From a virus (lineage: Duplodnaviria; Heunggongvirae; Uroviricota; Caudoviricetes): DNA of 4,649 nt. Below the pieces are notes generated by a model that saw only the letters and a list, made by a program, of their open reading frames with translations, was not told the origin of the DNA and ran no database searches. Below, in pieces: positions 3,068 through 3,631 of this stretch. Location: IMG/VR virus record IMGVR_UViG_2706794670_000004. The stretch is one strand, 5' to 3'. Positions within the stretch are counted from its first letter, which is position 1; every line of letters starts with the position of its first letter. Both the position numbers and the translations under genes were made by a program.

Positions 3068-3631
3068 ATGAATCGCACGTCTATTGAAAAACTCCCGTCA
3101 CTTACGCATAACCATCTTCCTGTCATGACAACAGAGCTGCTGGCTGATTTGTACGGAACAGAGCGCCAGCGTTTGACAAACAATTTCAATCGAAACAAAG
3201 AACGGTTTATAGAAGGTAAACATTTTTTCCTGATAGAAGGTGATGCGTTACGAGAGTTGAAGAACGAAAACTCTTTAAGAGTTTCTGTGAAAATTGCCCG
3301 TAACGTTCGCTCCCTCATCCTCTGGACAGAACGTGGCGCAGCCCGTCACGCCAAAATGCTCGAAACCGATCAGGCGTGGGAAGTGTTCGAAAAACTGGAA
3401 GACTGTTATTTCAACCAGAAACAGCCACCAGCGGCACAAAACACATCTATCGAAAATGATGGATGCGCATTACTGAGCCACTTCGATAAACACGGTCAGG
3501 TTGAGTTCACGGAAAAGGTACCCGCCGATGCGATGGTATGTACTCTGGAACGGTTTAAATTTTATCTGGAGCAACACGGGTGGATCGTTGCCCGTAAAGA
3601 GCAACTGGTGGAGCGGTTGATGCGGTTTTAA
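3068..3631 (+). CDS. ORF6N-domain protein (KilA-N/ORF6N superfamily; putative antirepressor-like or DNA-binding accessory protein)
   Basis: 187-aa ORF from ATG 3068 with AAGGA (3056-3060) 7 nt upstream. 'LADLYGTERQRLTNNFNRNKERFIEGKHFFL' and 'LWTERGAARHAKML' follow the ORF6N pattern as I recall it (L-A-x-L-Y-G-V-E-x-x-x-L-N-x-A-V-K-R-N-x-x-R-F-P-x-D-F-x-F-x-L ... F-T-E-x-G-V-A-M-L). The 5' extension to 2870 in the ORF track has no RBS and overlaps promoter and terminator signals. Confidence 0.7.
   Translation: MNRTSIEKLPSLTHNHLPVMTTELLADLYGTERQRLTNNFNRNKERFIEGKHFFLIEGDALRELKNENSLRVSVKIARNVRSLILWTERGAARHAKMLETDQAWEVFEKLEDCYFNQKQPPAAQNTSIENDGCALLSHFDKHGQVEFTEKVPADAMVCTLERFKFYLEQHGWIVARKEQLVERLMRF

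Follow-up and report, generated by a model that had tools for sequence, protein, structure and literature searches.

The open reading frame (ORF) at positions 3068–3631 of the window, i.e., the complete stretch of 4,649 nt of IMG/VR virus record IMGVR_UViG_2706794670_000004 analyzed here, probably encodes an AnrP-type antirepressor as part of an RNA-gated secondary-immunity cassette located between the antiterminator gene Q and the terminator tR' of a lambdoid prophage. This assignment is based on a conserved domain, homology to AnrP, matches to RNA families, complementarities with their co-variation, and synteny. All genes, promoters, RNA elements, and terminators given below lie on the plus strand.

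Analysis of the ORF and its gene product

The ORF extends from ATG 3068 to a stop codon ending at 3631 and encodes 187 aa. As proposed in the initial annotation, it represents a real ORF with its own ribosome-binding site, a Shine-Dalgarno sequence AAGGA (3056–3060) located 7 nt 5' of the start codon. Alternative in-frame starts were found upstream at GTG 2870 and at ATG 3062; ATG 3068 was chosen for its spacing to this Shine-Dalgarno sequence and since homologs begin at the equivalent methionine. A further ATG at 2944 shares this frame, and the corresponding leader frame in two related loci (L002 and L091) stops inside the target b2 described below.

A search against Pfam verified the suggested ORF6N domain at residues 13–97 (PF10543, 74.4 bits with a cut-off of 27.8, E 8.8e-21), the alignment spanning profile positions 5–86 of 86, while neither KilA-N (PF04383) nor Bro-N (PF02498), which had been named as related candidates, matched the protein at E<=0.1. 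Over its full length, the protein also matched PHROG 2379, annotated as "anti-repressor" (E 4e-85). An invariant motif, LILWTERGAARHAKMLETDQAWEVFEKLEDCYF, is located at residues 83–115, followed by a disordered linker (residues 115–130) and a conserved C-terminal domain of about 60 aa (residues 131–187). Sequence search against solved structures resulted in no match at E<=1, Foldseek comparison of the AlphaFold model with the PDB gave nothing below E 0.78, and NCBIfam returned 0 matches. PADLOC revealed no component of a defined defense system, with only weak domain-level matches to candidate PDC-S05 (E 1e-7 to 2e-3). The GC content of the ORF (46.3%) lies below that of rusA (50.5%) and the helicase gene (52.4%), so that the AT-richness noted by eye relative to the replication genes holds marginally, but it equals that of Q (46.6%).

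Comparison with Gifsy-1

Alignment of the protein with STM2616/AnrP (SL2578) of Gifsy-1, which likewise comprises 187 aa, covered 184 of the 187 residues with 49% identity (E 6e-58). Judged by this homology, the ORF encodes an AnrP-type antirepressor and therefore belongs to a known gene type that has a characterized homolog, though its N-terminal domain represents another allele than that of Gifsy-1 AnrP. That the product is instead a sequence-specific DNA-binding regulator, either an activator or Cro-like, acting directly on phage promoters and not via a repressor protein, seems rather unlikely to us.

In common with the isrK-orf45-anrP locus of Gifsy-1, the window harbors, in the same order, Q, c4-a1b1/isrK, C4 (orf45/STnc1160), the antirepressor gene, tRNA, and lysis genes, and the Rfam matches upstream of the antirepressor gene occur in identical order. 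The segment comprising promoter, isrK, and C4 is 88% identical, whereas the Q proteins are unrelated. Apart from that, the window possesses an extra module of about 200 nt between C4 and the gene, consisting of a second promoter, an IsrK-like leader, and an sRNA-Xcc1-type RNA, which does not appear in Gifsy-1. Due to this module, an orf45-like frame (2734–2964) ends 104 nt 5' of ATG 3068, while in Gifsy-1 the leader stop overlaps the start codon (AUGA). A homolog of isrJ, found 3' of the gene in Gifsy-1, was detected neither in the window nor in the uninterrupted relative L012.

In Gifsy-1, the isrK promoter drives anrP, which is transcribed in lysogens by partial read-through from this promoter and controlled at translation (Hershko-Shalev et al. 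2016, PMC4825925). IsrK provided in trans lifts anrP translation about 140-fold, and AnrP, acting upstream of Q, raises the mRNA of the antQ operon and induces the Gifsy-1 prophage (PMC4825925). The earlier classification of our ORF as a Q-dependent late gene, plausible for a gene presumably located downstream of PR' (see below), is thus too simple. Induction of the Q operon and of the prophage by the expressed antirepressor was demonstrated for Gifsy-1 alone and is predicted by analogy for the protein of the window.

RNA elements upstream of the gene

In the interval between Q and the ORF, four Rfam families were identified above their gathering thresholds, namely c4-a1b1, isrK, C4, and sRNA-Xcc1. 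The first module starts with a sigma-70-type promoter (TTGACC-18-TATATT, 2592–2621; 10 of 12 matches in the scan), the equivalent of the Gifsy-1 isrK promoter, whose sequence is kept in Gifsy-1 despite the unrelated Q proteins. It is followed by c4-a1b1 target hairpins (2615–2667; RF03163, 50.1 bits with a gathering threshold of 46.7), in which complementarity indicated the target b1, UUGGAAC (2653–2659), and by an IsrK-type short RNA (2628–2705; RF01394, 77.5 bits, gathering 50), for which a terminator scan revealed an intrinsic terminator with a stem at 2683–2699 and a T-run. Further downstream, a putative processed antisense RNA of the C4 type (2730–2813; RF01695, 71 bits, gathering 45) covers the full model length, and the conserved 3' CACCC after its closing stem is visible in the sequence. 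Its b' segment, GUUCCAA (2785–2791), is complementary to both flanks, i.e., to b1 and to the target b2 (UUGGAAC, 2817–2823), which is its exact complement. This pairing co-varies with the targets in other loci: Gifsy-1 harbors ACGCCAA and UUGGCGU in place of GUUCCAA and UUGGAAC, and in the related locus L020 a compensatory 1-nt insertion occurs at all three sites (b', b1, and b2). Exact matching did not bring out the a' pairing of the C4 RNA. In Stx phages, isrK and C4 also precede ORF6N-type antirepressor genes elsewhere, at other positions.

The second module is headed by a promoter-like site (TTGACA-17-TACATT, 2833–2861; 10 of 12 matches in the scan), whose TTGACA is retained in L091, a locus without isrK and C4. 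Complementarity and a T-run point to an IsrK-like leader (2869–2924), in which a hairpin (2869–2883), deduced from stem co-variation with L002, would present a1 (GCUCAAAAC, 2872–2880), followed by b1 (UCGAAAG, 2884–2890), a weak hairpin (2897–2917), and a U7 run (2918–2924); the minimum free energy fold of this leader is weak. Next comes the sRNA-Xcc1-type RNA (2947–3030; RF02221, 77.4 bits, gathering 53), which matches the model end to end (model positions 1–87). It carries b' (CUUUCGA, 2997–3003) in the loop of hairpin 2 and a' (GUUUUGAGC, 3006–3014) in the junction. The corresponding downstream targets are a2 (CUCAAAA, 3028–3034) and b2 (UCGAAAG, 3052–3058), the latter overlapping the Shine-Dalgarno sequence of the ORF. 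Loop and both targets co-vary perfectly, with CUUUCGA/UCGAAAG in the window, CUACUGA/UCAGUAG in L002, and CUACUUG/CAAGUAG in L091. Based on this pattern, the sRNA-Xcc1-type RNA would behave like a second C4-like antisense RNA, presumably one that represses.

Survey of sRNA-Xcc1 elements

In the literature, sRNA-Xcc1 is treated as a trans-acting, virulence-linked sRNA, present in integron cassettes of Xanthomonas campestris. A stable sRNA-Xcc1 of about 88 nt was documented in Xanthomonas (PMC2996969), and mere mentions in passing place it upstream of the toxin gene symE in Xanthomonas integron cassettes and, in APSE phages, upstream of an ORF6N-encoding gene. Unlike this published description, the element of the window revealed target pairs in cis on both sides and an antirepressor gene downstream. 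We extended the analysis to other members of the family, using exact k-mer complementarity with permutation controls in place of RNAduplex, which is uninformative on long flanks since it ignores intramolecular structure. Among 77 distinct Xcc1 elements from viral contigs, 65% possessed a loop with at least a 6-mer complementary to both flanks compared with 3.6% for permuted flanks, and for 7-mers the values were 53% and 0.8%, respectively. G-U pairs are tolerated, and the downstream loop target in other modules usually ends 8–11 nt ahead of the start codon. A run of at least five T residues between b1 and the Xcc1 RNA was detected in 52 of 57 modules (6 of 57 controls), and TTGAC occurred upstream of b1 in 43 of 57. 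Genes following 81 Xcc1 elements include those for Rha (16), Bro-N (11), KilA-N (10), P22_AR_N (9), AntA (7), and ORF6N (7) proteins.

The target pairs encoded in cis, together with the antirepressor genes downstream, argue for a cis module, though the RNA may also act in trans. It appears likely that sRNA-Xcc1 (RF02221) represents a second widespread family of processed antisense RNAs of the C4/CI type and not a free-standing virulence sRNA, that it forms part of fixed gating modules, and that its hypervariable loop would act as a determinant of immunity specificity. Such a module may consist of a promoter, a decoy leader with a1/b1, a terminator, the RNA itself, and a2/b2 over the Shine-Dalgarno sequence, and may gate antirepressors (Rha, Bro-N, KilA-N, P22 Ant, AntA, or ORF6N) or a toxin gene in the case of integrons. 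We also considered a conserved leader peptide starting from an ATG at the 5' base of the Xcc1 stem but make no case for it as a general mechanism: 50 of 76 elements possess this ATG, yet the frame mostly stops within the RNA.

The link to symE, together with the finding that overexpression of IsrK arrests growth of Salmonella (PMC4825925), could also indicate a growth-inhibitory protein with the upstream RNAs as RNA antitoxin, i.e., a toxin-antitoxin-like stabilization or abortive-infection unit. We give this very little credence, as the toxicity in Gifsy-1 proved to stem from AntQ, which lies downstream of AnrP (PMC4825925), and antirepressor families, not toxins, follow most of the surveyed Xcc1 elements.

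Genomic context of the cassette

The gene is located between Q (2180–2587) and an array of four tRNA genes (4092–4402), as initially described. Q encodes 135 aa from ATG 2180 (Phage_antitermQ, PF06530, E 2.7e-52), while public genomes (L211–L220) call a protein of 128 aa starting at 2201. In Stx phages of strain Sakai, the late promoter PR' starts 258 nt before the 3' end of tR' (Sy et al. 2020, PMC7547250). This offset maps PR' inside Q in Stx phage L221 and, in the alignment, to about position 2451 of the window, so that a Q933-type PR' would be located at 2418–2451 inside the 3' part of Q, with transcription starting near 2451.

In L221 as well as in L080 and L058, the tail of Q runs directly into a palindrome and the homolog of tR', and L050 and L056 harbor another insert of about 480 nt in the same slot. 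Compared with Stx phages, the region from about 2580 to 3648, which holds both promoters, isrK, C4, the Xcc1-type RNA, and the ORF6N gene, is by alignment inserted where the 3' end of Q otherwise adjoins a StxS-like tR'. Its right border is marked by the palindrome TTTACGATCGTAAA, present in two copies (3649–3662 and 3920–3933) that flank a run of 257 N (3663–3919) between the ORF stop and the terminator. This run, on which the initial annotation was silent, probably reflects a gap in the assembly or masking; in 18 loci identical on both sides, the 14-mer occurs once and nothing is inserted. The segment 3920–4008 shares about 85% identity with the stretch that follows Q in Stx phages and ends at tR', and it contains a homolog of the short StxS RNA (3930–4003) with the tR' stem at 3978–3999 and a T-run to 4003. 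The terminator noted after the gene was found in the terminator scan, though in the window it is located 347 nt past the stop with the N run between, compared with 76 nt in the 18 otherwise identical loci. The tRNA array, preceded by a promoter-like site (4053–4082) detected in the promoter scan, comprises CAU, Arg-UCU, Thr-UGU, and Gly-UCC genes, the first being classified as Met by ARAGORN and as Ile in RefSeq relatives.

Synteny anchored on Q supported the view that the position after Q is a variable slot. All 42 loci with a Q of at least 95% identity carry the ORF6N gene directly downstream, compared with 0 of 39 loci with a Q of 75–85% identity, where 15 harbor the gene 2.5–3.4 kb upstream of Q and 24 lack it. 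On the synteny check proposed in the initial annotation, both outcomes occur, constancy among loci with near-identical Q and variable presence among diverged ones. A scan of genome contigs with Q yielded only 8 loci, none with the ORF6N gene, and a search of E. coli DNA was swamped by tRNA matches and therefore unusable for prevalence counts. With a cassette that is inserted when compared with Stx phages of related Q, that is missing after Q in diverged lineages, and that is equipped with promoter-like sites and a downstream terminator, the gene resembles a moron, i.e., independently acquired fitness, toxin, or defense cargo that uses late transcription and has no role in phage regulation; the best PADLOC match could be taken in the same direction. 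This reading is nevertheless very improbable, since the gene encodes a full-length homolog of a prophage-inducing antirepressor, is always accompanied by C4/IsrK or Xcc1 RNAs targeting its ribosome-binding site, and has the same GC content as Q. Moreover, the truly variable cargo (a methyltransferase, an HTH gene, and a toxin-antitoxin-like pair) is located after the terminator of the ORF6N gene or replaces the spacer, not the gene itself. The designation as uncharacterized cargo finds no support: homology to the studied AnrP and the dedicated antisense-RNA regulators traveling with the gene point to a regulatory (secondary immunity) module of the phage and not to a toxin, fitness, or defense payload.

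The exact 187-aa protein was found in about 3,900 collection blocks, with the top cluster named Shigella sonnei. Immediately 5' of the helicase gene, complete genomes identical to the window carry the end of an IS3-family transposase gene, and in one relative (L013) the ORF6N gene is disrupted by an insertion of about 2 kb. All this would fit a relic gene, left intact but without activity in a decayed prophage, whose identity across thousands of assemblies reflects clonality and not selection. We consider this quite improbable, as the ORF, its Shine-Dalgarno sequence, and all RNA elements are intact and the loop-target complementarity is perfect. In addition, such antirepressors of Gifsy phages reportedly can act in trans on other prophages, which also counts against a relic.

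Proposed regulation of the antirepressor

For the AnrP-type antirepressor in its RNA-gated cassette, we suggest the following mechanism. At its N terminus, the protein has the ORF6N domain, whose fold is winged-helix-like, and at its C terminus the conserved domain of about 60 aa. Its gene would be transcribed from the promoter at 2592–2621, by reading through the IsrK terminator, and, as a second route, from the cassette's own second promoter at 2833–2861; PR' inside Q probably adds further read-through once Q is made. Translation would be kept off by antisense RNAs processed from the same transcript. The C4-type RNA is predicted to pair with its own a/b targets, and the Xcc1-type RNA, via its loop CUUUCGA and the junction GUUUUGAG, with a2/b2, the b2 segment lying over the ORF's Shine-Dalgarno sequence. 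IsrK and its analog in module 2, both short terminated leaders, would carry the decoy targets a1/b1; once accumulated, they would titrate the antisense RNAs away and thereby free the ribosome-binding site. The antirepressor would then inactivate a CI-type repressor of its own or a co-resident prophage, presumably by direct binding, and loss of the repressor would switch on the early operon including Q, which in turn may provide more read-through in a positive feedback.

Relation to known systems and significance

The immI region of P1 and P7 (c4 RNA, icd, and ant) was reportedly described by Citron and Schuster in 1990 and by Biere et al. in 1992. The window resembles it in a predicted processed antisense RNA cut from a transcript bearing its own targets, with a1/b1 upstream, a2/b2 downstream, and the downstream target over the ribosome-binding site ahead of the antirepressor gene; both Rfam families, C4 and c4-a1b1, match in the window. 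Unlike P1 and P7, no icd-like gene was identified in the window, and two RNA modules are arranged in tandem after Q of a lambdoid phage. Such a two-lock arrangement of C4 and Xcc1 modules before one antirepressor gene, not described for Gifsy-1, P1, P4, or N15, may be a new variant.

The anti-immunity region of N15 (CA RNA and antA/B/C) and the immunity region of P4 (CI RNA, seqA/seqC), both of which are described as working by premature transcription termination, revealed isrK followed by C4 in the Rfam search, in N15 upstream of the antirepressor operon, as does the window. The P4 CI and N15 CA RNAs were thus rejected as Xcc1 members, and neither genome yielded an Xcc1-type RNA. Gene 30 of N15, annotated as anti-repressor Ant, encodes a Bro-N protein, unlike the ORF6N protein of the window. 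As in immI of P22, where ant is under Mnt, Arc, and sar, an antirepressor gene would be held off by a small antisense RNA, and P22_AR_N was found in nine genes behind Xcc1 elements. In contrast to P22, Mnt- or Arc-type repressor genes are absent; sar of P22 is a true cis-antisense transcript and not a processed sense-strand RNA. Compared with the StxS or PR'-tR' leader of Stx phages, the window differs by the cassette of about 1.07 kb between Q and the tR' segment.

Altogether, a protein that thousands of genomes of E. coli, Shigella, and Salmonella list only as "ORF6N domain-containing" can be designated an AnrP-type antirepressor. The antirepressor and its RNA regulators move as one cassette among lambdoid positions, being located after Q as well as in the nin region and close to int, and one of its landing sites is the PR'-tR' leader, the source of StxS in Shiga-toxin phages. 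The comparative evidence strongly suggests that sRNA-Xcc1 works like the P1 C4, P4 CI, and N15 CA RNAs, which would change the reading of its matches in Xanthomonas, Xylella, APSE, and enterobacteria, currently discussed as a virulence-associated or vesicle-delivered sRNA. Antirepressor modules open SOS-independent ways to prophage induction and cross-talk between prophages, which bears on the induction of Shiga-toxin phages.

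Identification of the ORF6N gene and its product

The window encodes a DnaB-type helicase (about 189-1586), an 85-aa ORF (1583-1840) between the helicase gene and rusA (1840-2211), the antiterminator Q (2180-2587, Pfam Phage_antitermQ), the ORF6N gene (3068-3631), and four tRNAs (4092-4402). The 85-aa ORF was called and conserved in all genomes identical to the window, with no significant match in Pfam or NCBIfam. For the first tRNA (4092-4168), ARAGORN indicated Met (anticodon CAT) and RefSeq lists tRNA-Ile for the equivalent gene in relatives, which would fit a lysidine-modified ileX/ileZ-type tRNA. 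A promoter-like site ahead of the tRNA array (4053-4082) agrees with the promoter mapped for the tRNAs of Stx phages.

The ORF at 3068-3631 is a genuine gene of 187 aa, as first proposed: a Shine-Dalgarno sequence (AAGGA, 3056-3060) lies 7 nt before ATG 3068, the same Met at which homologues start. Its assignment to ORF6N was confirmed by Pfam (residues 13-97, E 8.8e-21, far over the curated cut-off), with no KilA-N or Bro-N match in the same profile check. Two further features of the initial annotation held only in part. The GC content of the gene (46.3%) is below that of the helicase gene (52.4%), but equal to that of Q (46.6%), and the terminator expected behind the gene exists (3978-3999 plus a T-run), but is located 347 nt past the stop codon, beyond a run of 257 Ns (3663-3919).

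PHROGs family 2379 ("anti-repressor") takes in the entire protein (E 4e-85), the N-terminal 125-130 residues resembling many further antirepressor families and the last c. 85 residues leading to separate small families. Decisively, the gene product showed 49% identity over 184 residues (E 6e-58) to STM2616 of phage Gifsy-1, likewise of 187 aa and encoded directly after Q, which is the anrP gene of Hershko-Shalev et al. 2016 (PMC4825925). At E<=1e-5, about 4,660 database proteins matched, most named just "ORF6N domain-containing protein" and a few "antirepressor"; the best cluster (99% identity) carries the name Shigella sonnei, and the assembly collection contains the identical protein in about 3,900 blocks. 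Altogether, the gene is a new member of a kind already known and experimentally characterised, the AnrP-type antirepressor under C4/IsrK control.

An isrK/C4 module and a putative second antisense element upstream of the gene

Searching Rfam revealed four families above the gathering score on the plus strand of the interval between Q and the ORF6N gene, namely c4-a1b1 (2615-2667), isrK (2628-2704, containing an intrinsic terminator), C4 antisense RNA (2730-2813), and sRNA-Xcc1 (2947-3030). The first three occur in the same order in Gifsy-1, and isrK followed by C4 is also found in P4 and N15, in the immunity regions known for the CI and CA RNAs. The RNAs P1 C4, P4 CI, and N15 CA form an established class of processed antisense immunity RNAs, to which the isrK/C4 module therefore belongs on the basis of the order shared with Gifsy-1, P4, and N15. 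The C4 motif GUUCCAA (2785-2791) is complementary to UUGGAAC in the loop of the second isrK hairpin (2653-2659) and again immediately 3' of C4 (2817-2823). All three sites co-vary in two relatives, with ACGCCAA/UUGGCGU in Gifsy-1 and a compensatory 1-nt insertion at each site in the related locus L020. Since the segment from promoter to C4 is 88% identical between Gifsy-1 and the window despite unrelated Q proteins, the promoter at 2592-2621 is part of the cassette and not of Q.

The sRNA-Xcc1 element is arranged similarly. Its second hairpin has the loop CUUUCGA (2997-3003), whose complement UCGAAAG stands at 2884-2890 and at 3052-3058, the latter copy overlapping the Shine-Dalgarno sequence of the gene. 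Its single-stranded junction GUUUUGAGC (3006-3014) is complementary to GCUCAAAAC (2872-2880) in an upstream hairpin and to CUCAAAA (3028-3034). In two related loci the loop differs and the targets on both sides are altered to fit, namely CUACUGA with UCAGUAG in L002 and CUACUUG with CAAGUAG in L091. A pattern scan detected a promoter-like site (TTGACA-17-TACATT, 2833-2861) ending 7 nt before the hairpin of the upstream target a1, a spacing like that of the first module, whose promoter ends 6 nt before isrK. The terminator hairpin of this second module is energetically weak, but its stem co-varies with L002. Judged from its pairing potential, the Xcc1-type RNA appears to be a second antisense lock of the C4 type on the ribosome-binding site of the gene, a new feature of the window.

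From an ATG at 2944, where the Xcc1 closing stem has its 5' foot, a frame runs without a stop into that of the gene and would yield a product of 228 aa; in L002 and L091 the equivalent frame ends at a TAG within the downstream target b2. Among N-terminally extended forms annotated in the databases, P0118 (215 aa) spans the Xcc1 region and P0087 (230 aa) the C4 region.

Borders and distribution of the cassette

The Sakai Stx1 phage (L221) and the loci L080 and L058 served to set the borders: in them, Q is 16 codons longer and stops inside the palindrome TTTACGATCGTAA, directly followed by a homologue of window 3920-4008. This segment ends in the terminator tR' and is the counterpart of StxS, the short RNA described by Sy et al. 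2020. Since Q meets the palindrome and the tR' homologue directly in these phages, the segment at about 2580-3648 represents an insertion into the PR'-tR' leader. In the Sakai Stx phages, Sy et al. 2020 (PMC7547250) placed the start of PR' 258 nt upstream of the 3' end of tR'; in the window it would fall inside Q, at about 2451. Positions 3930-4003 showed c. 85% identity to the StxS RNA and tR' terminator of Shiga-toxin phages, and Rfam gave no family for this StxS-like segment, just a chance-level Trp_leader match.

The right border is the palindrome TTTACGATCGTAAA, which holds the Q stop codon in Stx phages. In the window, a perfect 14-nt copy stands on either side of the N-run (3649-3933 including the palindromes). 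The run could conceivably hide a strain-specific insertion; 18 loci 100% identical to the window on both sides, complete genomes included, harbor a single palindrome and no insertion, and the run is most likely an assembly or scaffold gap or a mask.

For synteny, 91 loci were anchored on Q. With Q identity of at least 95%, all 42 loci carried the ORF6N gene directly 3' of Q. Between 85 and 95%, this was the case in one of five loci, another having the gene upstream of Q and three none, while at 75-85% none of 39 loci with enough downstream sequence had it there: 24 lacked it and 15 harbored isrK and an ORF6N gene 2.5-3.4 kb before the end of Q. The four loci below 75% had none. A different, AT-rich insert of c. 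480 nt occupies the slot from the 3' end of Q to the palindrome in L050 (about 790-1290) and L056 (about 5400-5890), the Q identity of such loci being 83-89%. Stx phages, too, have this isrK/C4 module ahead of ORF6N-type antirepressor genes, which lie there near the int end or within the early region.

Thus, the variable slot after Q was correctly recognized (42/42 against 0/39 loci, with another insert in L050 and L056), but its occupant is a self-regulated antirepressor cassette and not a payload gene; variable payloads of relatives, a 65-aa ORF together with either a DNA methyltransferase or an HTH gene, sit after the cassette. In many E. coli prophages, the 65-aa hypothetical gene (L001-L003, 5076-5273) is conserved 3' of the ORF6N terminator, followed by the methyltransferase or HTH gene and then the tRNAs, a block missing from the window lineage. 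In L019, c. 810 nt (3575-4383), apparently two small opposite-strand genes forming a toxin-antitoxin-like pair, take the place of the spacer behind the ORF6N stop codon (window 3632-3967), which is an example of real cargo near the gene. In L013 (3572-5532), an insertion of c. 1.9 kb, possibly a mobile element, interrupts the C-terminal part of the gene, and 38 nt (window 3533-3570) are duplicated.

Among the loci with at least 95% Q identity, the N-terminal domain occurs as alleles (c. 59-68% versus 90-100% identity), and the C-terminal part is steady at c. 86-98%. The Xcc1 segment accompanies only the window-type allele, in L091 without isrK or C4.

Proposed mechanism and state of the prophage

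Gene and regulators would share one transcript, as shown for Gifsy-1 and suggested here by the identical layout; in that phage, read-through from the isrK promoter yields the anrP transcript, which is left untranslated until IsrK, a short RNA acting in trans, raises translation c. 140-fold (PMC4825925). Processed C4-type and Xcc1-type RNAs would then pair with a2/b2 and block the ribosome-binding site, which for the Xcc1-type RNA is suggested by complementarity, co-variation, and position. For P1 C4, it is established that a2/b2 pairing blocks the ribosome-binding site. Short terminated leaders, IsrK and its analogue in the second module, bear the same targets and might lift the block in trans. 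Such relief was shown for IsrK in Gifsy-1, where the authors' account is one of alternative mRNA folds (PMC4825925); for the second leader it may be expected by analogy. The protein would finally derepress a lambdoid prophage, and Q might boost read-through. Derepression by AnrP was seen as raised antQ-operon mRNA and phage release, i.e., Gifsy-1 induction (PMC4825925); a like action is presumed here, binding to the repressor itself being putative across the family.

Complete genomes identical to the window contain an IS3-family transposase gene (HTH_Tnp_1/rve) whose end lies at about position 79, just before the helicase gene (window 1-188; L212-L214, 1-128). Because of this neighbor, the prophage is probably a remnant truncated on its early side. 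It may have no repressor of its own, and the protein may be inactive or confined to acting in trans on other prophages.

Xcc1 modules in other phages

IMG/VR was scanned with a pattern sparing loop and junction, and nearly all matches displayed the Xcc1 architecture. In 87 unique elements with full flanks, 79% had a loop or junction 6-mer or longer with a perfect reverse complement in both flanks, compared to 11.5% with permuted flanks. For the loop region only (77 distinct loops), the values were 65% versus 3.6% (maximum 9.3%, 500 permutations), and 53% versus 0.8% for 7-mers. Allowing G-U pairs rescued half of the loops without a perfect 7-mer, compared to 18% of controls, a result that speaks for RNA pairing rather than a DNA operator. 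The most frequent end point of the downstream loop target is 8-11 nt ahead of the start codon, a run of at least five Ts separates upstream target and RNA in 52/57 modules (6/57 control segments), and TTGAC occurs within 75 nt upstream of the upstream target in 43/57. These positions and counts point to a layout of promoter, short decoy-target leader, terminator, RNA, targets over the ribosome-binding site, and gene, the same as in isrK/C4. Genes behind Xcc1 elements belong overwhelmingly to antirepressor families; the first gene after 81 elements was, e.g., Phage_pRha (16), Bro-N (11), KilA-N (10), P22_AR_N (9), AntA (7), or ORF6N (7).

In the literature searched, sRNA-Xcc1 is regarded as a trans-acting, virulence-linked sRNA, with passing notes only on its location upstream of an ORF6N gene in APSE phages and of symE in Xanthomonas integron cassettes, and it is named jointly with C4 in a single paper, only in a table. 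Tandem stacking of RNA modules, as seen in the window, occurs outside enterobacteria too, since Xylella Temecula1 harbors five tandem sRNA-Xcc1 copies c. 385 nt apart, and in Xylella fastidiosa strain De Donno sRNA-Xcc1, isrK, and C4 are neighbors on a single strand (PMC12189769). Of all that our analysis produced, the comparative evidence for the Xcc1 family as a general gatekeeper of antirepressor genes is of greatest interest.
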